Part shown: positions 1 to 11,994 of the stretch, piece by piece
How positions within the stretch are numbered: position 1 is the first letter of the stretch
Layout: every line of letters begins with the position of its first letter
From: Candidatus Thorarchaeota archaeon SMTZ1-45
Lineage (GTDB): Archaea; Asgardarchaeota; Thorarchaeia; Thorarchaeales; Thorarchaeaceae
Length of the DNA: 11,994 nt
NCBI GenBank assembly: GCA_001563335.1
Contig: LRSL01000099.1
Coordinates: 1-11,994 of the forward strand
Direction: 5' to 3'
Program-made: the position numbers and the translations under genes
Notes under the pieces: generated by a model
Told to the model about the DNA's origin: nothing
What the model saw: the letters and a program-made list of their open reading frames with translations, nothing else
Databases searched by the model: none

Positions 1-1685
1 GAGTTTATGGACGGTGCATCCCACCCTTCTCCAAGGAGTGACTTCGTACCAACTAGAACATTCACACCACCCTTTGAGAACAGTTCTGTTATGAGTTGCA
101 CAGCCTTCTGTCGATCCATCCCCCTGACTGTCACAGTAGAGTAATTTGGGTCAGCAATGGGTTTGACCGAAATTGATTCACGGAGTATCTCACAACTGTC
201 AGCACTTTCCAGGAGGAGTTCTGTCGAATCTGTAGGGATGATTATCAATGAACCACTCAGAACACCAAGCCTGATGCCACTGAGATTCGACCGTCTAATC
301 TCCTCAAAGATGGGCACAACACCAATCTTATCCAGTTCCGGAAGGTCTTGTTCACTCTTGGGGAGATAGGCTTTTCTTATGTAATCAGTTAAAATGACCA
401 TCCGTAGATTCTCGCCAAGTGTCTTAAGTTCCATTGTAACTATTGCTTGGACTGCATAGAGTTTTGTGATGCTTCGTTTCAGTACTGCGTCAAGTTTTCT
501 TGTGCTAATCAGATTCACATCTCTTCTTTCTAGAGCATCAATTCGATAGAGCCTGTCCCTAATTCGCTTCAGTGGTGGGGACAAGTCCTTAGGATCTACA
601 TCCGGGGGAAACAATATTCCTTCGAGCAAGGTTTCCAACCATTCCTTGTTGAACCAAGGTATTCCGAACTGCTCACCAGCGATGAGCTTGATTGCTTGTT
701 CTGGTAACACTACTTTTCGATGTTTCAGGTAGACAAGCATACTGGAAAAGAATGATGGATCTTCGAGAATCTCAATAACGTATGCTTCAGGATCTTTTAA
801 CCACTGGTGGTTCTTGACTTCTTCCAAGAACTCATCGTCTGTTTCGATGTCCTTGACAAACCTTTCTACTGATTGCTTGAACTCCTTCAGTTTGCTACCT
901 TCGATAAGACTTGGATATGTGAAAAGAACGAGATCTTGGTGGGGACAGAGATTTCCTTCCTTCACAAGTTCAGGTACAGACACTTCCGCATCAACAGGAC
1001 CACAAAGGTCCATATATCGCTCCCACTCAAACATTGAAACGTCATATGGTGGTGTCGCAGTTAAGGCTAGAACCTTACTGTCTTCCAATCCACTAACTAC
1101 TCTCGTAAGGCAACGCCACCAATTCGATCGTAGATGATGAGCTTCATCTAACACAATGGTCTTCACCGATAGATCCTGTAGTCGCTTGATTACATTGTGC
1201 TCACTCTGAACATTTTCCTGAACGTCGATGCTGTTGCTGTTATTGTTGCTTAGCTCTTCTTCTTCATCATCAGCATCAAAATCATCATTATCTTCAGAGT
1301 CAGGTTCTTCTGTGTACAATGTGTAGTCTTCTTCCAAGACCCCAGAACAAGCACTGTACAGGCCTTGATATGTTGAAACCGTTAGGAATTTTGGATTATG
1401 GATGTCGGTGGAAATCCAGTCTGGTGTTTCACTCCCTTCAGGTAAGAAGAAGCCTACTAGCCTTGAGACCCATTGATCACGAATTGCTAGGGTAGGAGCT
1501 AATATGAGTGAAGGCTGGTCTATCCTTCTCATCACTTCTAGTCCTAGGAGTGTCTTTCCAGACCCTGGAGCCGCAACGACATGTAGTCTGTTGTCATCCA
1601 GGTGTTCCTCAAGCTCACCTAGAACGCGTGCTTGGTATGGCCTCCAAGTGTAACGAAAATTGATTTCTGAGGGGAATTTCTTCAT
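1..1685 (-). CDS. Superfamily-2 DEAH-box helicase (ResIII/SSL2-like), 3' end truncated by the window edge
   Basis: Manual translation from ATG at 1685 gives MKKFPSEINFRYTWRPYQARVLGELEEHLDDNRLHVVAAPGSGKTLLGLEV..., open to position 1. Motifs: Q-motif WRPYQ, Walker A APGSGKT (1551-1571), Ia LILAPTLAIRDQW, II VLDEAHH (DEAH 1137-1148), III LTATP (TAT 1053-1061), V LLGEGWDAP near the edge. SD-like GGTGAATGAGGA lies upstream. Absent from the ORF track, presumably because there is no stop codon in the window. Confidence 0.92.
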   Translation of the reverse strand, partial: MKKFPSEINFRYTWRPYQARVLGELEEHLDDNRLHVVAAPGSGKTLLGLEVMRRIDQPSLILAPTLAIRDQWVSRLVGFFLPEGSETPDWISTDIHNPKFLTVSTYQGLYSACSGVLEEDYTLYTEEPDSEDNDDFDADDEEEELSNNNSNSIDVQENVQSEHNVIKRLQDLSVKTIVLDEAHHLRSNWWRCLTRVVSGLEDSKVLALTATPPYDVSMFEWERYMDLCGPVDAEVSVPELVKEGNLCPHQDLVLFTYPSLIEGSKLKEFKQSVERFVKDIETDDEFLEEVKNHQWLKDPEAYVIEILEDPSFFSSMLVYLKHRKVVLPEQAIKLIAGEQFGIPWFNKEWLETLLEGILFPPDVDPKDLSPPLKRIRDRLYRIDALERRDVNLISTRKLDAVLKRSITKLYAVQAIVTMELKTLGENLRMVILTDYIRKAYLPKSEQDLPELDKIGVVPIFEEIRRSNLSGIRLGVLSGSLIIIPTDSTELLLESADSCEILRESISVKPIADPNYSTVTVRGMDRQKAVQLITELFSKGGVNVLVGTKSLLGEGWDAPSIN

Positions 1686-1724
1686 TGTAAGTTGGTCCTC
1701 ATTCACCACGTCGAATAGTAGGCA

Positions 1725-1774: not shown

Positions 1775-2269
1775 TCATTTTCTTCGCAAAACAGCTCTTG
1801 CAAGCTTGAGACCCGGCTCGACTATTAATTGCTGAAGAATCATACGGAGACGCTCACTTCTTCTGGCGTATCTAGCAATGGGGGGTGACACCTCATAGTA
1901 CGTTCGAATCGCAATGCGGCCTATTGGGTGACCATTTAGCCACTCATCTCGAAAATTCCTCAAGAGGTCGATTTTCGGATGAAGTGGAGTACCAAAAACA
2001 GCTGTAGCGATGAAGCATTCTGTTTCATGTTCTCTACAATATACCTCATCATTCTCCACCCTCTTCTTATGCTTCTCACAAAGGAAAACATGTGTCTGGC
2101 ATGTAACACAATTTCCAACTGGGTCCGTTCCCTCTTTGAGAGGGATTCCACATCTGTCACAAGTTGCGTGTGATATACCATCGGATAAGTTGGCTCCACA
2201 CTTGGAACACTCTGACTCACCCAAGTCACATATTGCCCCGCAATAACGACATTCGACTTTCTTTGGCAT
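1775..2269 (-). CDS. Zinc-ribbon/zinc-finger protein with C-terminal CFI-box-CTERM domain
   Basis: CRYC-x10-CSKC ribbon, then C-x2-C-x13-C-x2-C-x6-C-x2-H-x10-C-x2-H, then CFIATAVFG...LLRNFRDEWL...GRIAIRTYYEVSPPIA, the CFI-box-CTERM signature. Strong SD AGGGGTGA 3 nt before the ATG. Confidence 0.88.
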   Translation of the reverse strand: MPKKVECRYCGAICDLGESECSKCGANLSDGISHATCDRCGIPLKEGTDPVGNCVTCQTHVFLCEKHKKRVENDEVYCREHETECFIATAVFGTPLHPKIDLLRNFRDEWLNGHPIGRIAIRTYYEVSPPIARYARRSERLRMILQQLIVEPGLKLARAVLRRK

Positions 2270-2480
2270 GCTTCACCCCTCAATTGAGATCCTCGTGAAG
2301 GAACCTTTCATATGTACCATCGAAATTGTCGATAAAAGGATTGCTTGAAGTGTTTTAATACTCGAAGGATTTTGCGTGCGAAGTTATTAATGGAGATTTC
2401 CTAATATTAGACGCCACCACAGGACTTCTTCTGCATCAGAAGACGCCAATTTTTCTGTGGATTCGCGATGGTTGTAGGGG
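2270..2480. promoter_or_regulatory. Divergent promoter region between the zinc-finger gene and the giant membrane protein gene
   Basis: 211-nt gap between head-to-head starts, with TATA-like TTTTAATA (~2352-2359), GTTATTAA (2383-2390) and the palindrome CTAATATTAG (2401-2410). Confidence 0.5.
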
Positions 2481-5400
2481 ATGAATGTGCAGGAAAAAGG
2501 ACTCGAAAGAGCAAGCCGATTGGCAGATAGGATTCAGCTATTTGCCTTGGTCGTTGTCCTCCTGATTATTTCCACAGCTGTTTGGCTTGCTTCTTATTTT
2601 CTGATTCAGCCCTTTGTTCAAGACACTCTTGTTCAGATGTTGATTGCAACAGCAGTTAGCCTTGCACTTGCAGGACTCATTTTGGTGTGGAGGAAACGAG
2701 TGATTCCCGGTGCATTTCTCTTCTTCATCAGTGCGGGAATCATAGCTCTTTCACTAGCGTTATTCTGGCAGTCGTTTCAAGGGTATGTTCTCAGTCTTCA
2801 TGGATTTCTACTCGCATCGCTTGCGATTCTGAATAGTCTACGTAATAGAGAAAAAATCACAAATGAAGCATATCAGAGATCGGGGTGGGTGCTGGGTTCT
2901 ATTATCATTATAACTGGCCCTCTTGGTATTGCTATCGGACTCCTAGCAATCACATCAGCTTACTCCTTCATTCTGGCCGGTTTCACTTTTTCACTTGCAG
3001 TCTACGTAATTGGTGTTCAATACATGCAGAAGTCTTCTCGACTGGGAGTCCCAAATGTTATCATAATTTCAATAGCTCCAACTATGTTGACTGTTGATTT
3101 CTTGATCAACTCAGCTATTCTATCTCCTGTTCTGTTGATATCCGGATTCTTCATTGCTTTTGGCACCACACTTTTTATAGCGTCCCAATGTGCCAAACGC
3201 CTTCAATCCTGGGTGGGAACAAGATGGGTCCGTAAATCACAAGAGAAAAAGGGTCGAGACTCTCTTTTTGAGGAGATTGGACTGGGAGAAGTAGTTGAGG
3301 ATGAAGAAGAGCCCCTCTTAATCCCTGATGAATGGATAATCGTTCCTGAGGATGCCAATACTCTCTCTGGGATTTCGCTTATTCTTGTAGCGGTAGGAGT
3401 TCCAACTATCTTTCTTTGGCTCTCTGAGTCAACAATATGGGGGACAGAGCTACAACTTATGGGACCCATTGCGTTCATCATTGGATTGCTCATCCTAGCA
3501 CCTTCACCAGTCTTCTTCAGGTTAGGCGAGCGACTAACGCGAGATTCAGAATACGCAGCTGTAAGAGCTATAGGTGTAGCTATTGTGCTTCTCGCATCAG
3601 CTAGCGGCTTTTTCTGGACACAGTTCTATCTCTGGCCAATTCTCATTTCATTCTCAATTTCTGTTGTCTTGTTTGCCGCAGGAATTACAGGTCTCTTCAG
3701 GCAAGTACGAAAGCTATGGCGACAGTTTTGGTTGTCAATTGTGGGCCGTTTAAGAGAACTCAAGTCATGGGTTCTGAGCAATATGCTCATCACAGGAGTT
3801 GTTGGTGATCTCACACTCTGCATCATACTATACGGTTTCATCAATCCAATCCTTCAGGTACAACCTGGATATCCTCTCTCGGTCCTAGGCATATTAGCTG
3901 CGGTCTTTTCTGGAGTGGGCATTCTTGGTCTCTCATTCTTTCGAGCACATCCTAGACGACTCCGCTTTCTATCTATAGGTGTAATGTTGCTTCTCAGTTC
4001 GTTGGTCCTAGTCACGTTCTGGCAGTTCTACGATATCATGCTGTTTGCTGTGCTCGATTCAATTGCCTACTCTCTTCTTTGGTTCCTAGGCTCAATTGCG
4101 CTCTTCAAGTTTGGAATCAGTCGACTCAAAATCGGACTCGCATATCTGCCTGGATTCCTCGCAGCAGTATACTTGACTTGGATGCTTGAGGCACCCCTAC
4201 CGACATACCAGTTTCCCATTCTAACAGTGCTGCTCATTATTACATTGCCCGGACCTATCCTGCATATTGAATACCGAAAAGCTGGAGGCGCTCTATTGTA
4301 TGGGGCTCGTAGACTTGGGACCTCCCTGTATAACGCACTCATATACCTCGGCCGAGTCCTGCTTAAATTCATCCTCATCTCCTGGGCGCTGATTGTTGTT
4401 GCTGTTCTGACCTTCGTGGCCTGGCAGTGGCTTGCACCATACTATAGTTGGAATCTTTTGCCAATTCTGGGTTGGATCACACTAGCCTTCTTTCTGGCAT
4501 ATATCCCAGCAATCGGACGCGCAGAGGAATCACCCTCCTATCTCATGCAGGTCTGCATCCTGGGAATTGCTTTGGCACTTGGAGTTCTCGTATTCTTCTA
4601 TACCCAACTTCTACATACCTTACTTCGTGTTCTTGCATCAGCGTTAGTCACTTGGCTTGTGCTAACAATTGCGAAAAATAAATTCCCTGAAGAAGCCCAA
4701 GTCTTCTTTTTCCCTACAGCCTGGATCATGACCTTGTCGCTGGTATGCAGCTGGATATTCCTAACAGCCACTGGGAATATGGGAGAGATACAATCAGGTC
4801 TGCTCGCAATGGTCATTTTCGGGCTCGGATTATTACCCTTGAAATTGATGGGTGCACCACCTCGAGTCGTCAATACTCTCTACACAGCACTCGCAGTTCC
4901 ATCTGCTGTATTGCTAACATATCTGGTATTTGCTGACTATCTTCTTACCTTGACAGCATTGTTTTTAGCTCCAATACCTGTTGCCTACAAGCAATACGGG
5001 AAAGTAATCAGCGCAGTTGGTAATGCGGCACTGATAGCCCTCCGAGTATTCTTCGCATATATCGCGATATATCTGATTATAGCTGTTGCGCTTTTCTCGT
5101 TACTCCCAGCTGCATTACTAGTCTATTACTTGTTACCGTTATTCTCCTTCCATTCTTTACCAGTTGCACCAATTGTAATTACTTTCATACTACTCTGGAT
5201 GTGCCTCTGGCTTCCAGCTCTCTACTTGCGAAGATCAGAGAATTTACGCCTCCATTCAGTAGTTCTCATTATTCTATGCGCAGCGGTCAGTTTAGACTTG
5301 GTTGTTTTACTCCAGATTTCAGATCCGATTCTTACAATCCTCACTGCAGTTACGCTTTTCTCTGTTCTATTTACCATAGTGACGCCTGTTTTGGTCTTCA

Positions 5401-8400
5401 TTGAGCAGAGAGCTCGGTCTGCTGCATTCGCAATTAGCGTGATTCTATTGCTAGGTCTCTACCTGGCACCATTCGATCTTATTCCCAAAATCTTACTAGC
5501 TATATTTGGTATCGGACTCATAGCAACGCCAGTTCTCAGTAAGGCAAACAGAGTGCTCATTGCATACCCTGTAGTCACATGTTCTTTGCTTGCCTTCCTG
5601 TTCTGGTATTTCGATTTGCACACACTGGATGCAAGACTTGTTGCTGTTGGATATGTGGCAATTGAATCAATGCTTCTCTCAGTGCCTGAGCAACTAAGGA
5701 ACAAAGTCACATGGACTGTGTTTGCGGTGTCAACAGGACTGTCCCTAGCATTAGTTCTGAGTCCCTTCATGACCATCAACCTTGTTCTTGCGTCGTTAGT
5801 AGCACTCGAAATCCTGCGTTTCACACCAGGATTCAAGATTGGCGAGAAGACCGGAATGCTATTGGGTGTCGCTCGTGCTTTGTTAGTCGGCGCAACAGTA
5901 TACCTTCTGATTATATCTTGGATTCCATTGTCGAGTCCACTTAGACACCCTCTGATGGAGTTCGGTCTCTCCAGTCTGATTACAACAGCAATTCTGGCAT
6001 TTTCAATGAGGCGATTCATTTCTTCAGAAAGGCTCATTGGTCTTCAGTCTCTAGCTGTCCTCAACTTCTGTATCGTGATATTCTTCTATCTGTGGATAAT
6101 TGTTGGGGTTGATTTCCTATACTCTGCATATATTGCAGGAATCCCACTTCTCGTATTCGCAGGAGTTCTCTCAACTGGAGATACTTTCAAACGAGCTGGC
6201 TGGGTGATGTTTTGCATTGTCATAACAGCGATGATTTCAGGCAGCTGGTTTACCTATTATCGTTCTATTGAATCGTTGTGGTTATGCATCACGACAGCCA
6301 TTTTTCTAACGAGCTCACTTAGATTGACAGATCCGAAAGGACATGAGGACATTGCAGGAAAGACAAATGTTGCTATTGGCACATTGATACTCATGCTGGA
6401 AACCATCTGGGTCTGGCACTGTTTCTTAGTGTTCCTCTATGAAATGAATGTCGTTCTTGCAGGAGTGGGCGTCCTCCTGACTCCTGTACTTCTAATGCCT
6501 TTGAGGAGTGCTATATCCTGGGATGCATTTCGAATCCTTTGGGGAGTTGTTAGTACAACGATTGCAGTTTCACTAGGCTCACTCATCTCAGGGTGGAACC
6601 TATATGACCTCATTTTGCCTACAGAACCCTATCTTACTTTTGGCATTATACTATCTCTTTTCTCATTCCTGTCCACTCCTGCATATCTTTGGATTGAGAG
6701 TCGACTTAGAATCGACGAGGAACGGCTCACAGCTCGATATAGCTGGAGTCCTAGTCTTGCTGGATGGGCTGCGTTAGGTCTACAAGTCGGGACATATCTG
6801 CTGGGCGAAACACGTTTCATGTATGCTATGGGAGGACTTGGGTTTGCACTAGCTCTTCTCATCTTCTATTTTCTCACTCCTTCAAGACCAAGAACACTCT
6901 TCGTGGCTAATATTCTCATTTTAGCCTCAGCTATCGCTGTAGGAGTATGGGTTTGGGCTGAGCCTAACTTAGGAACTGCGGAGTTGATTGCACTCTTTCT
7001 CTTTGTATGGTACATACTGAGTTTACCCCTGACTCTTGCAGCAACAATGGCTTTTCTTGGATGGCTAGCCACTAAATGGCATCAACTAACTACCGCTTTC
7101 TCCCGTTTCATATCTTGGGCACGTGCTGGCTTGGCTTCTGCATTACAGCGAGCCAAAGAGATCTATAGTAGAAACAAGGCGACATTTGCCACACTCCTAC
7201 CTATTCTGATTGGTGGTCTTGTGTTCTTGTGGATGTATGATCCCATGGACGCCTCTACTATTCTTGGTTTGCCCTACAAGAATCCAGCTTTTGCAATTAC
7301 TTTGGGTCTAGCTTTGGTGGGCCTGATCTATTGGTTCGAAGCAGTTGCATTAGAGCCGAAAATAGGTAATGAGCTTCGATCCCCCTCCATGATCCTATTT
7401 GGATTCGGTGTGAACAACATCATTCTTCTCATGTCTTTGACAGCAGCATCCTATGAACTACTAGAGCTGATATTCATCCTATCATTTGCTGCATCTCTCG
7501 CCTTGATTGCACTCCTTGCACAGGCTAGTTCTTTCTCATTGAAGGTGTGGATGAGACGGATTGCCGGGACTCTTGGGATTACTCTCTTTATAACGACATA
7601 TAGAGGTCTTATCACAAATGCTGGCTTCCTACCAATACAGGCTCTGCTATATGCGGTCATCATCTTTCTTTTGGTAGAAATCCCAGTATTTTGGGTGCAA
7701 GTGAAGGCCTTCGTTGCACTCCTTGGTCGTTACGGTGCAATAATTATCAAAGCCATCAAGAACCTTGGTAGTCTTTTGCTCACGATCTTCAGAAGATTCG
7801 GCTATGTCATGTGGACCTTCTTCACATTGTTGTTCGTCGTGGTGATTGCAGTGCTTAGCAGACCCCTGTTCAGCGAGCTTCTCAATATGCCAACAGATGG
7901 TCTACTGTATGAGGTTCCAGGTTTCTCTGTACCAACAGCTATCATTGGACTGTTAATGCTCTTCATTGCAATCGTACGACGTCGTGTCAGAACACGCTTT
8001 GGTCTCTTTAGTGGACTGTACGCTGCTTTTGGTGGGGGAGTCACAGTCATTGCGTTTCTATTTGATCATGGGCACCAAGTTCTCTCCCTATTCTCAGCAA
8101 TCATTGCCATATGTGGAACCGGTTTGATGCTTAAAGGAGAGCTTCAATTGGACCCAAGGCGCATTAGCATGTTATGGTCACCAATCCCACCAAGCATATC
8201 CCTATCCTTACTCTACTACATGCCACCAGCTTCTAGTGCACCTGATTCATTCTTACTGGCGCTGTTAATATCATTCAGTTCTACATTCATGCTTTACCTT
8301 CTTTCAACAACTGTGAATTGGATTCCGAAACGATATAGAGAATTGTTGTGGAGTATCCTAGCCATTATGACTGGCAGCATCACCTACTTTAGCTCATACC

Positions 8401-8747
8401 TGCTTATAGTACCGCCATTTGAACAAGTTGCAGGAATCTACTTGGGAGTCTTTGTAGCTTCGATTATTATGTACCCAGTAACAGCACGAAGTGCTCGACA
8501 GCTCTTCCTTTCTCCGCTGTTCTTTGCACTCACAGGATTCGCATACACGATTGTCCTTGGTCCAGTTTATCAGAGTCTTCTACTGGCTGCTGCAGCATTT
8601 CTCTTCTTTGTGAGTCGCTATATCAAGGAGAAAGAAACGATGAACCCACGACTCGTCTATTTGCGATTAGTGGTTCTAGTTGCACTTGTGACATGTATTG
8701 CAGTGTTTGCAATAGTAACTGGGCTCGAGATTATCTCAGCAATTTGA
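2481..8747 (+). CDS. Giant polytopic integral membrane protein of unknown function (2088 aa, about 65 hydrophobic segments counted by eye)
   Basis: Uninterrupted 6.3-kb ORF made almost entirely of 16-25 aa hydrophobic stretches with alternating short neutral loops and R/K-rich loops. No catalytic or nucleotide-binding motif recognised. Ends TGATGA. GTG at 2487 is an alternative start. Confidence 0.9.
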   Translation: MNVQEKGLERASRLADRIQLFALVVVLLIISTAVWLASYFLIQPFVQDTLVQMLIATAVSLALAGLILVWRKRVIPGAFLFFISAGIIALSLALFWQSFQGYVLSLHGFLLASLAILNSLRNREKITNEAYQRSGWVLGSIIIITGPLGIAIGLLAITSAYSFILAGFTFSLAVYVIGVQYMQKSSRLGVPNVIIISIAPTMLTVDFLINSAILSPVLLISGFFIAFGTTLFIASQCAKRLQSWVGTRWVRKSQEKKGRDSLFEEIGLGEVVEDEEEPLLIPDEWIIVPEDANTLSGISLILVAVGVPTIFLWLSESTIWGTELQLMGPIAFIIGLLILAPSPVFFRLGERLTRDSEYAAVRAIGVAIVLLASASGFFWTQFYLWPILISFSISVVLFAAGITGLFRQVRKLWRQFWLSIVGRLRELKSWVLSNMLITGVVGDLTLCIILYGFINPILQVQPGYPLSVLGILAAVFSGVGILGLSFFRAHPRRLRFLSIGVMLLLSSLVLVTFWQFYDIMLFAVLDSIAYSLLWFLGSIALFKFGISRLKIGLAYLPGFLAAVYLTWMLEAPLPTYQFPILTVLLIITLPGPILHIEYRKAGGALLYGARRLGTSLYNALIYLGRVLLKFILISWALIVVAVLTFVAWQWLAPYYSWNLLPILGWITLAFFLAYIPAIGRAEESPSYLMQVCILGIALALGVLVFFYTQLLHTLLRVLASALVTWLVLTIAKNKFPEEAQVFFFPTAWIMTLSLVCSWIFLTATGNMGEIQSGLLAMVIFGLGLLPLKLMGAPPRVVNTLYTALAVPSAVLLTYLVFADYLLTLTALFLAPIPVAYKQYGKVISAVGNAALIALRVFFAYIAIYLIIAVALFSLLPAALLVYYLLPLFSFHSLPVAPIVITFILLWMCLWLPALYLRRSENLRLHSVVLIILCAAVSLDLVVLLQISDPILTILTAVTLFSVLFTIVTPVLVFIEQRARSAAFAISVILLLGLYLAPFDLIPKILLAIFGIGLIATPVLSKANRVLIAYPVVTCSLLAFLFWYFDLHTLDARLVAVGYVAIESMLLSVPEQLRNKVTWTVFAVSTGLSLALVLSPFMTINLVLASLVALEILRFTPGFKIGEKTGMLLGVARALLVGATVYLLIISWIPLSSPLRHPLMEFGLSSLITTAILAFSMRRFISSERLIGLQSLAVLNFCIVIFFYLWIIVGVDFLYSAYIAGIPLLVFAGVLSTGDTFKRAGWVMFCIVITAMISGSWFTYYRSIESLWLCITTAIFLTSSLRLTDPKGHEDIAGKTNVAIGTLILMLETIWVWHCFLVFLYEMNVVLAGVGVLLTPVLLMPLRSAISWDAFRILWGVVSTTIAVSLGSLISGWNLYDLILPTEPYLTFGIILSLFSFLSTPAYLWIESRLRIDEERLTARYSWSPSLAGWAALGLQVGTYLLGETRFMYAMGGLGFALALLIFYFLTPSRPRTLFVANILILASAIAVGVWVWAEPNLGTAELIALFLFVWYILSLPLTLAATMAFLGWLATKWHQLTTAFSRFISWARAGLASALQRAKEIYSRNKATFATLLPILIGGLVFLWMYDPMDASTILGLPYKNPAFAITLGLALVGLIYWFEAVALEPKIGNELRSPSMILFGFGVNNIILLMSLTAASYELLELIFILSFAASLALIALLAQASSFSLKVWMRRIAGTLGITLFITTYRGLITNAGFLPIQALLYAVIIFLLVEIPVFWVQVKAFVALLGRYGAIIIKAIKNLGSLLLTIFRRFGYVMWTFFTLLFVVVIAVLSRPLFSELLNMPTDGLLYEVPGFSVPTAIIGLLMLFIAIVRRRVRTRFGLFSGLYAAFGGGVTVIAFLFDHGHQVLSLFSAIIAICGTGLMLKGELQLDPRRISMLWSPIPPSISLSLLYYMPPASSAPDSFLLALLISFSSTFMLYLLSTTVNWIPKRYRELLWSILAIMTGSITYFSSYLLIVPPFEQVAGIYLGVFVASIIMYPVTARSARQLFLSPLFFALTGFAYTIVLGPVYQSLLLAAAAFLFFVSRYIKEKETMNPRLVYLRLVVLVALVTCIAVFAIVTGLEIISAI

Positions 8748-8783: not shown

Positions 8784-9800
8784 CTAAGCTGATCCATCTT
8801 TAGGTTTCTTCTTCCAGAGTGAAGGGTAACGACCACGTTCCATTAGTACACGGTCAGTCTTTGCGACAATCCCACTCTTTGCTTTGGCTATTCTGTCGCT
8901 TGTGTCGTTGCATTTGGCTACAGCAACTGCTTCTCCCTTGAGTGTTCTCAAAACCACCATATCTTCCTTCTTCATACCGCTACTAAGACTCACAACTCCG
9001 CTCGCTGCAAGGTCAGCTCCGTGACAGATGGCGTCCACTGCTGAATCGCGCATATTGATAACAGGAAGATGGCCCAATCCGAATTCAATAGGACGTAGGT
9101 ATCTTCTAAGCTCTGTTTCATCACCATCTTCTTTCCAGAACACAAAAGCATCTTTCAAATCATAGAGTGAGCACATATGTTCGTCCTCTCTAAATGTCCC
9201 CACACGTGTCCGTCGCAGTTCTCTCATGTGCCCCCCAACACCGAGGGCTTCCCCAATATCAAAGCATAATTTTCGGATGTACGTCCCGGCCTGACAACCA
9301 ACTCTGAAGAGCACCAGTCGCCCCTTAATCTCCAGAATCTTGTTGTAGTAAATTTCACGAACTCGAAGAACTCTCTTGACAGACGACCTTAAGGGTGGTT
9401 TTTGGTATAGTTTCCCTACAAAATCATCTATGACCCTCCTGATGTCCTCCTCAGGAGCTGCCTTATGGAGTTCTAGAACACAGACATACTCCTTTCCAGC
9501 AGGTAATAATGCCTGCATGGCTTTTGTTGCATTTCCAACTCCTGTGGGTAAAATACCAGTGACAGCTGGATCTAAGGTTCCTCCATGTCCGACCCTTTCA
9601 ACCTCGAGTATCTTCCTTACCCAAGTGGCCACTTCATGGCTTGTTGGTCCTGAGGGCTTATCCAGTGCAATTACTCCATTCTTGAGAAGAAATTCAATAG
9701 GGAGATTCTCAAGTGATTGAAATCCATAGTCAGGATTTGTGCTATCAGATGCTTTCAATATCAGTTCACGAGGTTGATCTGCAGGCAACATGCCCGACAT
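8784..9800 (-). CDS. cbf5: H/ACA RNP pseudouridine synthase Cbf5 (archaeal TruB/dyskerin family) with PUA domain
   Basis: Motifs LDKPSGPTSHEV, GHGGTLDPAVTGILP (catalytic Asp), YQKPPLRSSVKR, CQAGTYIRKLC and HMRELRRTRVG; PUA region RDSAVDAICHGA; C-terminal RVLMERGRYP. SD GGGAGTG upstream. Confidence 0.97.
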   Translation of the reverse strand: MSGMLPADQPRELILKASDSTNPDYGFQSLENLPIEFLLKNGVIALDKPSGPTSHEVATWVRKILEVERVGHGGTLDPAVTGILPTGVGNATKAMQALLPAGKEYVCVLELHKAAPEEDIRRVIDDFVGKLYQKPPLRSSVKRVLRVREIYYNKILEIKGRLVLFRVGCQAGTYIRKLCFDIGEALGVGGHMRELRRTRVGTFREDEHMCSLYDLKDAFVFWKEDGDETELRRYLRPIEFGLGHLPVINMRDSAVDAICHGADLAASGVVSLSSGMKKEDMVVLRTLKGEAVAVAKCNDTSDRIAKAKSGIVAKTDRVLMERGRYPSLWKKKPKDGSA

Positions 9801-9832
9801 CTAATTAACACTCCCAAAAGAAGCCTTTGAAC

Positions 9833-10114
9833 CTACATTTCTATTCTGATTTTTGTTCTGAATTTCTCAATCAGACCTGCTTCTTCTATTGCTTTCTCAA
9901 CAGCTTTGTCATCAGCATCTGAAGTGATTGAGAGAATAGTTTCGAGAGGCTCTAGGTGCCTTGTATTACAACTACGTCTTCTCACGCCACTCAGGTGTTT
10001 AGGACCTGTAATAACAACATAGCTGTCATCCTTCATACTAACGACCACACATAGACTTCCAGCCTCGCGGCCCATAGTCTTTACACATACTCTTCCCGTT
10101 TCGTAGAAACCCAT
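9833..10114 (-). CDS. rpl14e: 50S ribosomal protein L14e (eL14)
   Basis: MGFYETGRVCVKTMGREAGSLCVVV...VVITGPKHLSGVRRRSCNTRHLEP matches the archaeal L14e pattern. Start moved to ATG 10114 because the SD GGTGAGGTG lies 7 nt upstream. Canonical position between cmk and cbf5. Confidence 0.95.
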   Translation of the reverse strand: MGFYETGRVCVKTMGREAGSLCVVVSMKDDSYVVITGPKHLSGVRRRSCNTRHLEPLETILSITSDADDKAVEKAIEEAGLIEKFRTKIRIEM

Positions 10115-10130
10115 TTCAATACACCTCACC

Positions 10131-10212
10131 TTGTCTTTGGTCAGCATCTGAGTCACCTCGATGCATCATTCCTATAGACTGGGAGAATGTGACGCTGACC
10201 GCCAGAAGACAA
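10131..10212 (-). ncRNA. Structured intercistronic RNA element with a C/D-type kink-turn hairpin and an alternative three-way fold (putative cis-regulator)
   Basis: The transcript contains GG-AAU-GAUGCAUC-GAG-GUGA-CUC-A-GAUGCUGA-CC (box C-like AUGAUG and box D CUGA, GNRA loop). It also has an alternative 10-bp helix GGUCAGCGUC/GAUGCUGACC plus a 7-bp helix UUGUCUU/AAGACAA. Folded by eye. Confidence 0.55.
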
Positions 10213-10243
10213 TATGAGCCTTACGCTTTGTACTACTGCCGAT

Positions 10244-10789
10244 TTAATTTGCAGATCTACCAAAGAACTCCTCGATAGCTGTGAATACAATCTTAATGAC
10301 ATTCTCAAGATCGTACTTGTCTGTGTTTATGATCAGGTCATAGATTGAATGATCCGACACATCAACTCCATAGTACTCAAGGTATCTTGCCTTCTCACTT
10401 CCTTCACGAGTGATAGTTTCTCGTCGTGCATACTCAAACTCTATGTCATCCCTCTCAGATATCCTTCGAATCCTATTCTCAACAGAAGCAATTAGTAGAA
10501 TCTTCAGATCTGCATTGTCCCCTGCCATCCATGCAGCTAATTGGCCATCAATTACTGCATTCCCCCTCTCAGCTTCTTCTCGCAGATTGTCATCAATCAA
10601 CCTGTCAATATCCTCGTTGCCCTCAGCAACTCTGCTAAATTCCTCTAGAGTAAGGTTTCTTTCTTTTGCAAGCTGACGAAAAATAACTCCGGCTGACATC
10701 CTACGAAGATTGAATTTCTTCGCAATGGCATCCGCCACCGAGCTCTTGCCTGTACCGTGGAGACCGCCCACCGTGATGACGTGCTTCAT
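10244..10789 (-). CDS. cmk: Cytidylate kinase, archaeal type
   Basis: MKHVITVGGLHGTGKSS P-loop, SAGVIFRQLAKE, IDRLID, VIDGQLAAW, RYLEYYGVD...YDLIINT. Start moved to ATG 10789, 4 nt after the rpl34e stop. Confidence 0.95.
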   Translation of the reverse strand: MKHVITVGGLHGTGKSSVADAIAKKFNLRRMSAGVIFRQLAKERNLTLEEFSRVAEGNEDIDRLIDDNLREEAERGNAVIDGQLAAWMAGDNADLKILLIASVENRIRRISERDDIEFEYARRETITREGSEKARYLEYYGVDVSDHSIYDLIINTDKYDLENVIKIVFTAIEEFFGRSAN

Positions 10790-10793
10790 TGCG

Positions 10794-11060
10794 TTAGTCT
10801 CGAGATGCTTTAACGATTCCACGACGTAGAGCCCTAGTGGAAAGAACTCCACCATAAGGTCGATTTGGACGTTTGGCTGAACGACTTACGCTTCTTAAAT
10901 TGTCGTGTTTTGCTCCACGAGACACTTGCAAGTGTGAGCCAGTTATGGCACACGTTCCTCCAGCCTTGTAGAATTTCTTTCTGTGAATTACTCTTCTTCT
11001 ACCTGGGGTCCTAATCATACGGTTGGACCTTCCCTTAGTGAGCACTCCGGGTCGTGGCAA
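10794..11060 (-). CDS. rpl34e: 50S ribosomal protein L34e (eL34), zinc-ligand-depleted variant, TTG start
   Basis: MPRP...RTPGRR.VIH...KRPNRPYGGVLS is the L34e pattern. SD GAGGTG lies 7 nt upstream of the TTG. Canonical position before cmk. Confidence 0.93.
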   Translation of the reverse strand: MPRPGVLTKGRSNRMIRTPGRRRVIHRKKFYKAGGTCAITGSHLQVSRGAKHDNLRSVSRSAKRPNRPYGGVLSTRALRRGIVKASRD

Positions 11061-11153: not shown

Positions 11154-11897
11154 TTAGAACTCATGTATCCGAAATCGTATGACTGCGACGACTGCTAGTA
11201 CAAGCAGAATCACCAATGTAATGATAATCGGGTAAACTGGATACATATCACCAGTTGTCATGCTGATTGATGACATTATGAGTCCCCACGGTCCCAGTGG
11301 ACCATAAATGGGATGTTGCGCAAGACTTGGACCAATGAACAGAAAGGGAAATGGTACTGCCATTACTGGCCCCTCTTTGTTAAAGAATGTAGCCAAACAC
11401 ATGGTTAGCCATGATAGGAAGAGCTGCCACAGCATCAAAGGGAATAGGGATATTATGAATGTGACAAACAATAGAGTAGCCCCCATCATAGTAGCTACTA
11501 CGTAGAAGATGATCCCTGGAATGAATATCATCGACAGACAGAACCCAAGTGCTGAGGGCACCAATTTCGCTATTATGAATGCAGTCCGTGATACAGGTTT
11601 TGAAAGAACCCACGCAGCTGATCCTGATCGTTTCTCTTCGAGTATTCTTTCTTGTGATATGATGATGACTGCAATTCCGGGAAAGATCATTGCCATCATA
11701 TAGAAAATGAAGACGCCCGCTTCAGGGTCCCCAATGCCAACTGATCCAAACAGCACTAATATCAAGGACCAAAGAAGAGCTTGTTGCCACCATGCATTTG
11801 TGCCAAACCAAGTCTTCAATTCTTTCCCAAATAGAGCACTAAACCCCATTCTCCAACCAGTTTCTGTTACTGTTTTGAATGCAGTCTTACTGGACAT
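11154..11897 (-). CDS. ABC-2 type exporter permease
   Basis: About 6 TM segments, N-terminal ALFGKELKTWF and the motif EEKRSGSAAWVLSKPVSRTAFIIAK typical of ABC-2 permeases. SD GAGGAGG spacing favours ATG 11897 over 11906. Confidence 0.88.
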   Translation of the reverse strand: MSSKTAFKTVTETGWRMGFSALFGKELKTWFGTNAWWQQALLWSLILVLFGSVGIGDPEAGVFIFYMMAMIFPGIAVIIISQERILEEKRSGSAAWVLSKPVSRTAFIIAKLVPSALGFCLSMIFIPGIIFYVVATMMGATLLFVTFIISLFPLMLWQLFLSWLTMCLATFFNKEGPVMAVPFPFLFIGPSLAQHPIYGPLGPWGLIMSSISMTTGDMYPVYPIIITLVILLVLAVVAVIRFRIHEF

Positions 11898-11994
11898 TCG
11901 TATCATCCTCCTCTACAAGTCGCATGAAAATCTCTTCCAGCTCATACTGCTTCAAACCAAAATCAACGATGTCTACCTTGTCATCCTGTAGTAC
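11887..11994 (-). CDS. C-terminal end of an ABC transporter ATP-binding subunit (5' part outside the window)
   Basis: Manual translation gives ...VLQDDKVDIVDFGLKQYELEEIFMRLVEEDDTNVQ*. LEEIFMRLV is the usual tail of ABC-2 ATPases. It overlaps the permease start by 11 nt. Confidence 0.75.
   Translation of the reverse strand, partial: VLQDDKVDIVDFGLKQYELEEIFMRLVEEDDTNVQ

Follow-up and report, generated by a model that had tools for sequence, protein, structure and literature searches.

Positions 2481 to 8747 of the window, by which we mean the whole 11,994-nucleotide contig LRSL01000099.1 of Candidatus Thorarchaeota archaeon SMTZ1-45, encode a membrane protein of 2088 residues, called the giant here, which is predicted to consist almost entirely of about sixty or more transmembrane (TM) helices. 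The giant has no relative in any library searched. The gene stands head-to-head with that of a small zinc-ribbon protein ending in a CFI-box domain, to which we refer as the partner. We tentatively favour, with less than even confidence, that the giant is an expandable intramembrane helical-repeat scaffold on which the partner docks. The functions discussed below for both proteins are predictions.

The initial annotation, made by a model from the letters alone, had taken the giant to be one gene, and its coordinates were confirmed: the frame is the sole long open reading frame (ORF) at this place in the ORF list of the window and is uninterrupted. It is present as a single copy in its genome, and the product is highly hydrophobic (grand average of hydropathy +1.06; Leu 18%). 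Translation probably does not start at the annotated ATG (2481). In three close relatives a TAG comes directly after the first ATG, and the frames begin at the codon equivalent to GTG 2487 (alignment A5), which in the window has GGGG just 5' of it (2481-2489). Hence, the product likely starts with MQEKG and has 2086 residues, the length of the database copy (P0002).

A word-indexed search returned 15 proteins, labelled as Thorarchaeota, Promethearchaeota or, once, Lokiarchaeota metagenome-assembled genomes, of which the full-length ones have 2078-2267 residues and 28-83% identity. The family was extended by profile search, and full-length orthologues overall span 2033-2447 aa at 28-83% identity. 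Searched against 400 Asgard genomes, a profile of 12 of the 15 proteins (alignment A1, with an identical copy and three partial sequences omitted) matched 26. Every one of them belongs to the GTDB family of the window's genome, in which 25 of 85 further genomes were matched, as against none of 314 genomes in 32 other families. The usual match is one open frame, end to end and co-linear over ~2,080 positions. This frame is found at full length on contigs of up to 548 kb and in relatives of a finished-looking chromosome, and contig pieces from four other sequencing runs, which are short and none of which spans the gene, are 100% identical without discordant joints. Compared with an 81%-identical orthologue, the ratio of nonsynonymous to synonymous substitution rates (dN/dS) is 0.15 overall and 0.09-0.20 per 300-codon bin, at a dS of 1.24 that is near saturation. 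An RNA data set with the gene did not appear among the public sequencing runs. The giant ORF is a genuine conserved gene, and more than a chance frame. A mis-assembly of several genes, the possibility against which the initial annotation had guarded its proposal, is ruled out by the full-length orthologues, the large contigs and the dN/dS ratio.

The number of membrane segments was assessed by three hydropathy or helix counts, not by a dedicated topology predictor. A 19-residue Kyte-Doolittle profile has 60 peaks at a value of at least 1.6 and 64 at a value of at least 1.2, and a dynamic-programming segmentation on the family-averaged hydropathy yields 68 hydrophobic segments. The AlphaFold helices of residues 595-2088 comprise 42 strongly hydrophobic and ~7 borderline or proline-broken ones (the latter by our own reading of the helix table), and together with the 18 hydropathy segments of residues 1-594 they give 60-67. 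The number of about 65 originally counted by eye lies within this range of 60-68. Relatives of the giant have 49-65 hydropathy peaks.

Between neighbouring loops, the number of Lys and Arg residues switches between at least two and at most one in 62 of 67 pairs. In shuffles, 34 pairs alternated on average and 51 at most, and 62 was reached in none of 100,000 shuffles. Moreover, 114 of these basic residues lie in basic loops, with 6 in other loops and 7 inside segments. The repeating order of TM segment, neutral loop, TM segment and basic loop, which had been proposed as a positive-inside pattern, is thus borne out by the counts. Loops are short (median 10 aa), and only four exceed 30 aa (235-293, 1400-1445, 1520-1568 and 1733-1775). 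Since all four belong to the basic class, we take them to be cytoplasmic according to the positive-inside rule. The first of them contains 14 Asp/Glu and 8 Lys/Arg residues, with R248, E284, W285 and I287 invariant in A1. The blocks into which the protein had been divided by eye have boundaries that coincide with the long linkers of the segmentation.

Profile alignments divide residues ~400-1100 into three tandem units of ~240 aa, which have diverged from one another and whose boundaries are approximate; each is made of a Trp/Arg-rich linker helix and 6-8 TM segments. Forty-five block pairs, built from 18 short-type sequences only, were compared with hhalign, and two of them stand out: 493-610 with 740-855 (blocks C and D; probability 95.1%, E 3e-8) and 638-756 with 874-992 (D and E1; 89.8%, E 2e-6). 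The repeat offsets are 236-247 aa. Blocks C and E1 (431-566 with 861-996) reach 60%, the 71% for B and C spans just 11 residues common to both blocks, and the remaining pairs are at or below 40%. Unit 1 is composed of a Trp/Arg-rich amphipathic linker helix, six TM segments and the end motif LPGPILHIEY, and unit 2 of eight TM segments and the end motif APIPVAYKQY, followed by a linker. Both motifs align as unit ends, with a family-invariant Pro and Tyr at matching positions. For unit 3, the 89.8% of the block-block comparison becomes 50-62% when the unit is compared with the whole protein.

The block of unit 2 is doubled in the long variants of the giant (2250-2295 aa). In the 12 that were aligned, profiles of single alignment segments match a second site ~235-240 residues away, and the tandem copy, an 8-TM block equivalent to residues ~637-872 of the window's giant, scores 85-134 bits (independent E-values 4e-27 to 3e-42). 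As read from these alignments, at least the stretch 400-1100 arose via tandem duplication of a ~240-aa unit, and one sub-lineage added a copy. The repeats emerged only with block-against-block profiles and subfamily-specific alignments; plain self-BLASTP on eight family members found no internal repeat, and windowed hidden Markov models (HMMs) on a mixed alignment gave an alignment-placement signal only. A search for repeats elsewhere in the giant found none: hhalign detected no relation of Block A to other blocks, nothing above the background of at most 40% in residues 1111-1732, and nothing above 5% for the C-terminal module (C-module) against the whole protein. In the 2447-aa relative P0039, overlapping BLAST segments suggest a second, independent duplication, on a BLAST basis only.

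Conservation was assessed in the 123 alignment columns where 22 or all 23 of the full-length sequences agree. Ninety of these near-invariant residues are Gly, Pro, Leu, Phe, Trp or Tyr, while charged residues and His account for 13, with two of them inside hydrophobic segments (H107 and E1110). Together with E1887, these two are the ionisable, family-invariant residues that lie within the membrane or close to it. The pattern resembles that of a protein in which packing, kinks and interfacial anchors are conserved, and not a polar pathway, although the outer-loop motif described below would also suit an enzyme or a receptor. Conserved positions are densest in the C-module and in residues 235-440, a stretch made up of the acidic loop, TM 9-12 and the first of the linker helices. 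The C-module is the most conserved part of the protein and has the lowest dN/dS (0.09). It holds a short loop motif, SxPxFS(E/D)LxxMP..G.LY.VP (1793-1814), in which an acidic residue is kept at 1799, and a helix motif, PLFFALTGFA(F/Y)T (2011-2023). Because the loop 1793-1814 is on the non-basic side, it would be extracytoplasmic and form the first outer loop of the C-module.

A lone C-module ORF of 308 aa was found in G387 (L022:7046-7972), in a 190-kb contig with unrelated neighbours and without a partner. It could be a module in its own right or what is left of a giant; since in G388, of the same genus, the C-module is reduced to 56 aa with a TAG stop (G388:C155:34495-34692), the G387 copy may be a remnant. 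Four other candidates for stand-alone C-modules were discarded: P0029, P0038 and P0043 have no start Met and are contig-end fragments, and P0026 begins at an internal Met of a long variant.

No family could be assigned to the giant. None of the 24,736 Pfam-A models matched it at E ≤ 0.1, no NCBIfam family scored above its cut-off, and no PADLOC family matched the giant or the partner at E ≤ 0.01. When 12 family members were scanned singly at E ≤ 1, five chance-level Pfam families were obtained and Piezo was not among them. A profile from 12 members retrieved no PDB sequence at E ≤ 10. No block matched a transporter profile in Pfam, NCBIfam or PDB sequences, which speaks against fused MFS or DMT repeats and agrees with the earlier impression that no transporter, channel or enzyme motif is recognisable. 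The DUF2339 model (PF10101; 33.6-bit cut-off), run over the whole genome of the window, did not match the giant; its sole match, at 20 bits, is below threshold and on another contig. Neither DUF2157 nor any other polytopic DUF in Pfam-A matched the giant. The profile of 20 C-modules (alignment A2), searched with hmmsearch against 1.84 billion representative proteins, gave 31 hits, all of them family members or fragments of up to 2447 aa, and the most distant one, a 1753-aa protein, has the same architecture as the giant. In the ESM Atlas, residues 1-2046 scored at best 0.82 to unnamed clusters, which is below a meaningful level. No Rfam family was found within the window. A PGF-CTERM sorting signal (TIGR04126) was considered and rejected: the match of 16.2 bits is under the 24.5-bit cut-off and internal (1812-1835), and the Gly-Phe of 'PGF' is unconserved in relatives. 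Full-text literature searches found nothing on the giant's family, and in the text of a preprint on Asgard solenoids (10.64898/2026.10.28.762692) the word 'transmembrane' occurs 0 times.

AlphaFold models were made of residues 1745-2088 and 595-1744. The C-module model has one long amphipathic helix and ~11 membrane helices, with a predicted local distance difference test score (pLDDT) of 85.7 and a predicted template modelling score (pTM) of 0.71. The larger model (m921e60de94a5; 1150 aa) is all-helical, with ~39 helices of at least 15 residues (pLDDT 78.4, pTM 0.43); its individual helices appear credible, its global packing does not. Neither model had a Foldseek match in the PDB at E ≤ 0.001. 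For the 1150-aa model, soluble HEAT, ARM, TPR and PPR solenoids occupy all of the top 50 rows, with no membrane transporter among them (E at least 0.009, TM-score at most 0.15), which may be a hint of stacked antiparallel hairpins. In the wide VIA search, the best values were Z 9.5 over 105 residues for the C-module and Z 10.0 over 152 residues for the 1150-aa model, and the best row of a second look was the TPR domain of KLC2 (Z 8.7, 210 aligned residues, root-mean-square deviation 8.8). The transporter rows of the C-module in Foldseek are ferroportin and NarK only, at E 0.46-2.2 and TM-scores of 0.12-0.15, and are not meaningful. In the structure searches of the two models, with scores at noise level, Piezo, GT-C, MFS and rhodopsin-type folds found no support. 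The comparison with solved folds, Piezo blades and polytopic DUFs that had been suggested with the initial annotation gave no fold above noise and no DUF profile.

The partner contains three zinc sites (C7/C10/C21/C24, C37/C40/C54/C57 and C64/H67/C78/H81; alignment A4), and its residues 85-149 match the CFI-box-CTERM model NF041770 with 81.6 bits against a 40-bit cut-off. All 10 partner orthologues scanned carry this domain (72.7-86.2 bits), and the partner is the sole CFI-box gene in the window's genome. It has neither a signal peptide nor a TM segment, and no DNA-binding family matched it. Of the 86 genomes of the GTDB family, 23 have the partner and 20 have both genes. In 19 of these 20 genomes the two are head-to-head on one contig, 200-300 bp apart, and the twentieth is fragmented. 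In six genomes the giant was matched but no partner; in G326, G327, G330 and G349 the giant is cut at contig ends, and G387 and G388 have a C-terminal remnant only. A partner but no giant was matched in three genomes. In G373 the partner is at a contig end, and the two hits in G383 cover the partner only in part, one of them being broken by a stop. In G320 (L024/L041:7381-8504), whose genome is a single contig, an SSB-like gene is followed directly by the intact partner. In other lineages the giant lies between these two genes; here it is cleanly absent, which we read as a loss of the giant because two genomes of the same genus keep it.

When loci were retrieved via the partner, the giant was adjacent in 16 of the 20 archaeal loci examined (L028 and L031 not included). 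The other flanks vary and include genes for a helicase, phosphofructokinase, aminotransferase, oxidoreductase, NuoN, Cbf5, CorA, an SSB-like protein and a DNA-topology-modulation protein. Pairwise identities of partner and giant correlate with r 0.81 (91 pairs from 14 loci), a value that is descriptive only, as the loci are kin.

Elsewhere, the CFI-box is found at the C-terminus of a subtilase with PKD domains, of PKD arrays, of a dynamin-like GTPase with Sel1 repeats and of pentapeptide-repeat proteins, and further bearers are TPR, cold-shock domain, PP-binding domain and Mrr nuclease proteins. This suggests that it is a portable C-terminal docking or targeting tag. Bacterial CFI-box genes (L049-L057; P0049-P0053) were seen in Planctomycetia, Omnitrophota, Desulfobacterales, Bacteroidota, Polyangia and others, with both secreted and cytoplasmic types. 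Among the CFI-box loci examined outside Thorarchaeota, there was no comparable membrane neighbour. The idea that the CFI-box is a sorting signal for the giant was rejected, given that the partner lacks a signal peptide and TM segment and that bacterial CFI-box genes lack such a neighbour. A literature search found no paper on the CFI-box domain or its motif.

The intergenic region shared by the two genes (alignment A5) is 84% identical among relatives whose proteins are ~80% identical. It holds the element TTATTAATG and an inverted repeat, TCTTCTG-CAT-CAGAAGA (2427-2443), in which substitutions in relatives preserve pairing as G-C or G-U. Taken alone, the hairpin does not reach significance (z -1.42). 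A regulatory role of this region is only inferred from these features.

Taken together, these features may be explained as follows. About sixty TM helices would be strung as positive-inside hairpins, in blocks joined by cytoplasmic Trp/Arg-rich amphipathic helices. The hairpins would stack into a long belt or plate clamped by the cytoplasmic interfacial helices, and the protein would be neither a transporter nor an enzyme. Its cytoplasmic face, with the loop 235-293, the linker helices and the C-module, might dock the CFI-box domain of the partner, and this docking could hold the partner at the membrane, or organise or shape a membrane patch. Solenoid-like packing, binding of the partner and a scaffolding or membrane-organising role are all inferred. 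A repeat array should accommodate an extra 8-TM block more readily than the core of a transporter would. The idea of an intramembrane solenoid or scaffold had been put forward by the initial annotation. The tandem repeats, the extra 8-TM copy, the structural type of conservation and the solenoid-type Foldseek rows, at noise level, lend it indirect support, whereas the packing and the role remain conjectural. Its further suggestions, that the protein senses tension or forms a large conduit, found no support in our data. We consider it possible, with more doubt, that the giant is a single-chain intramembrane alpha-solenoid of ~sixty TM helices that grows by 8-helix units and builds, with the CFI-box protein as adaptor, a rigid membrane-shaping belt or plate. 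The CFI-box would in that case be a general docking tag for membrane platforms.

Several observations weigh against a docking scaffold. Repeats are detectable in only about one third of the giant. With a pTM of only 0.43, the 1150-residue model does not establish the packing, and modelling covered just residues 595-2088. No structural match rises above the noise for helical proteins (Z 8.7-10.0, Foldseek E at least 0.009). The outer-loop motif, like the TGFA(F/Y)T helix, might belong to an active site. The giant is absent from most members of its family (60 of 86 genomes), and within its genus 22 of the 27 other genomes lack it, so that any role that it has must be dispensable. The partner is not strictly dependent on the giant either, since it is intact in G320 without it.

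An alternative that we regard as unlikely is a composite transporter, channel or lipid scramblase, in which one or several blocks, above all the C-module, form a conduit for ions, lipids or a bulky substrate and the rest serves as an anchor or gating lever. Eleven TM helices are a common transporter size, which the C-module fits; it is also the most conserved part and folds confidently, and H107, E1110 and E1887 offer family-invariant ionisable groups in or near the membrane. However, neither Pfam nor NCBIfam assigned a transporter or channel family, no PDB chain matched by sequence and no transporter fold stands out, the best C-module matches covering ~105 residues at Z ≤ 9.5. Just 2 of the 123 near-invariant residues are both ionisable and inside hydrophobic segments, and the tolerated 8-TM block suits a repeat array better.

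It is rather improbable that the C-module is a membrane-embedded enzyme of the outer leaflet, such as a lipid- or glycan-transferase, a polymerase or a ligase, with the upstream array as an accessory platform. Polytopic transferases typically bear loop motifs of the kind found at 1793-1814, where a short, presumably extracytoplasmic loop bears the family's strongest motif with an acidic residue at 1799, and the invariant TGFA(F/Y)T follows further along the module. Yet no HMM of a GT-C enzyme, an O-antigen ligase or polymerase or any other enzyme matched, and none of these appears in the fold lists. Moreover, E/D1799 is a single conserved acidic residue, there is no long extracytoplasmic loop or domain, and no glycosylation or lipid genes are near the giant in any locus.

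A further proposal, to which we give a similarly low probability, is about the partner alone and could hold whatever the giant does. The partner might be a transcription regulator of the giant gene, whose zinc ribbons act on the shared divergent promoter region, and not a physical partner. Zinc ribbons are often nucleic-acid binders, the head-to-head arrangement with its 200-300 bp spacer recurs in 19 of 20 genomes, the intergenic DNA with its inverted repeat is highly conserved (84% identity, where the proteins have ~80%), and the partner persists without the giant in G320. The occurrence of the CFI-box at the end of unrelated proteins fits targeting or docking better than DNA binding, however, and the lack of a match to a DNA-binding family also argues against a regulator.

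The distribution of the two genes indicates that the pair is accessory, dispensable and repeatedly lost. The giant is found in 5 of the 28 genomes of the window's genus. The window's copy shares 81-83% identity with the copies of genus g12, but only ~33% with the long variants found in G348 and G350, which belong to its own genus. Two deeply diverged types (~2086 aa and ~2280 aa, ~33% identical) thus exist within one GTDB genus. In a maximum-likelihood tree of 20 C-modules, the window's genus falls in two places and is monophyletic in 0 of 200 bootstrap trees, and the group of the window and G354 is nested in the g12 clade with 100/100 support. Cbf5, the housekeeping neighbour on the window's contig, has 89% and 87% identity to its counterparts in G354 and G350, against 77-78% to those in G348 and g12, and tracks the genus only partly, at variance with the C-module tree. 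Either the pair was exchanged between Thorarchaeota lineages or it was inherited as old alleles. Disrupted copies that are pseudogenes or sequencing errors were also seen: in G384 (L016/L044) a single TAG divides the giant into parts of 1384 and 645 aa, and in G318 (L039) TGA and TAG stops or a frameshift split it into 839 and 1256 aa.

Such a pattern could also be produced by a mobile accessory conflict module, for instance for virus defence or membrane-level exclusion, with the partner as sensor or regulator and the giant as effector, which we find quite improbable. The patchiness (26 of 86 family genomes), the differing chromosomal sites and neighbours of the pair, the C-module tree that splits the genus, the interrupted copies of G384 and G318, the loss of the giant in one genome and the XPB-like helicase beyond the partner in the window's clade would be in line with such a module. 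On the other hand, no PADLOC model matched either protein, the surroundings are housekeeping genes without an integrase or defence island, the helicase neighbour is limited to one clade, and 2,000 residues under uniform purifying selection would make an unusual effector. Virtually nothing is left of an artefact, a joint of several genes or a chance hydrophobic frame, for which the shortness of the contig, a metagenome bin with 5.8% contamination and the lack of an independent contig over the whole gene could be cited, but which is refuted by the full-length, co-linear frames on large contigs, the dN/dS ratio and the identical pieces from other runs.

The known protein that invites comparison is Piezo. 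According to a review (PMC9256749), the eukaryotic mechanosensitive channels Piezo1/2 have 38 TM segments per subunit with nine 4-TM repeat units, and Piezo is called the protein with the largest number of TM passes. The predicted count of the giant, 60-68 hydrophobic segments, is well above this, as had been pointed out initially; we claim no record. Like Piezo, the giant is a single chain with an exceptional TM number, its repeated TM bundles appear to be joined by cytoplasmic amphipathic helices, there is little extramembrane mass in the repeat region, and the repeats have diverged too far for plain BLAST. Unlike Piezo, it has a unit of ~240 aa with 6-8 instead of 4 TM segments and no recognisable pore or cap module, and it is an accessory protein of archaea whose gene is paired with one for a zinc-ribbon/CFI-box protein. 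There is also no sequence or family match between the two, and Piezo is absent from the fold lists, which were obtained with the models of residues 595-2088.

DUF2339 and similar polytopic proteins of bacteria are long arrays of TM hairpins with short loops and no soluble domain, and their function is not known. The giant resembles them in these features, but it is about three times longer than the 659 positions of the Pfam model of DUF2339 and has no profile match to it, including in the Pfam scans of the 12 members. With soluble alpha-solenoids (HEAT, ARM, TPR, PPR), it would share stacked antiparallel hairpins, growth by tandem units and the decay of sequence repeats under a lasting architecture, and tandem helix-hairpin repeats, the feature of this class, were found in residues 400-1100. 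Its helices, however, are hydrophobic spans of ~20 residues with positive-inside loops, and the likeness, with scores at noise level, concerns how the helices are arranged locally and does not amount to a shared fold. Regarding GT-C enzymes, the acidic residue E/D1799 in the first outer loop of the C-module is the point of comparison; there was no profile match and no GT-C chain in the noise-level fold lists. As in other CFI-box proteins, the domain of the partner is C-terminal, but the partner has only 164 aa, its domain follows three zinc sites, and it is tied to the giant.

If about sixty spans hold, the giant would be among the most membrane-embedded single polypeptides on record. A repeat protein built inside the bilayer would, if true, be a new architecture for structural biology, and the giant offers a natural case for the insertion and folding of very long polytopic chains. 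Asgard membrane biology bears on the origin of the eukaryotic cell. Being accessory and narrowly distributed, the giant does not represent a general Asgard trait. Moreover, the pairing may provide a first genomic handle on the uncharacterised CFI-box domain, which is found on diverse bacterial proteins.

Table 1. The giant, its parts and the partner gene in the window (positions of the window; residues of the 2088-aa translation).
Feature	Position	Strand	Basis
Partner, 164-aa soluble protein with three Cys/His zinc sites and C-terminal CFI-box	1775..2269	-	NF041770, alignment A4
Shared divergent intergenic region	2270..2480	.	Alignment A5
Giant polytopic membrane protein gene	2481..8747	+	ORF and translation, 2088 aa
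Block A, TM 1-8 (residues 20-234), invariant His107 in TM4	2538..3182	+	Segmentation, invariant columns
Acidic, putatively cytoplasmic loop (residues 235-293), conserved	3183..3359	+	Segmentation; side from positive-inside pattern
Block B, TM 9-12 (residues 294-406)	3360..3698	+	Segmentation; dense invariant columns
Repeat unit 1 (residues ~407-636)	3699..4388	+	hhalign
Repeat unit 2 (residues ~637-872)	4389..5096	+	hhalign to units 1 and 3; all-helical in m921e60de94a5
Repeat unit 3 (residues ~873-1110), weakest of the three	5097..5810	+	hhalign
Central and distal TM arrays (residues 1111-1732), linkers 1400-1445 and 1520-1568	5811..7676	+	Segmentation, AlphaFold helices
C-terminal module (residues 1733-2088), amphipathic helix and ~11 TM	7677..8744	+	Alignment A2, model

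Beyond the partner, the window begins with the N-terminal 569 aa of an XPB/ResIII-type helicase (3-1709, minus strand), which has 925 aa in relatives. It stands next to the partner only in the window's clade and in genus g12, and has weak PADLOC hits to PbeA and Cas3-like models. At the other end, a 250-aa membrane protein is encoded at 11154-11906 on the minus strand; its similarity to an ABC-2 permease in Pfam is sub-threshold, and no NCBIfam family matched. Between this gene and the giant, and convergent to the latter, lies the tail of an archaeal ribosomal cluster (8784-10855, minus strand) with Cbf5, L14e and an archaeal CMP kinase. The L14e ORF (107 aa) matches its family model from residue 18 only, and its start is probably located later than annotated.

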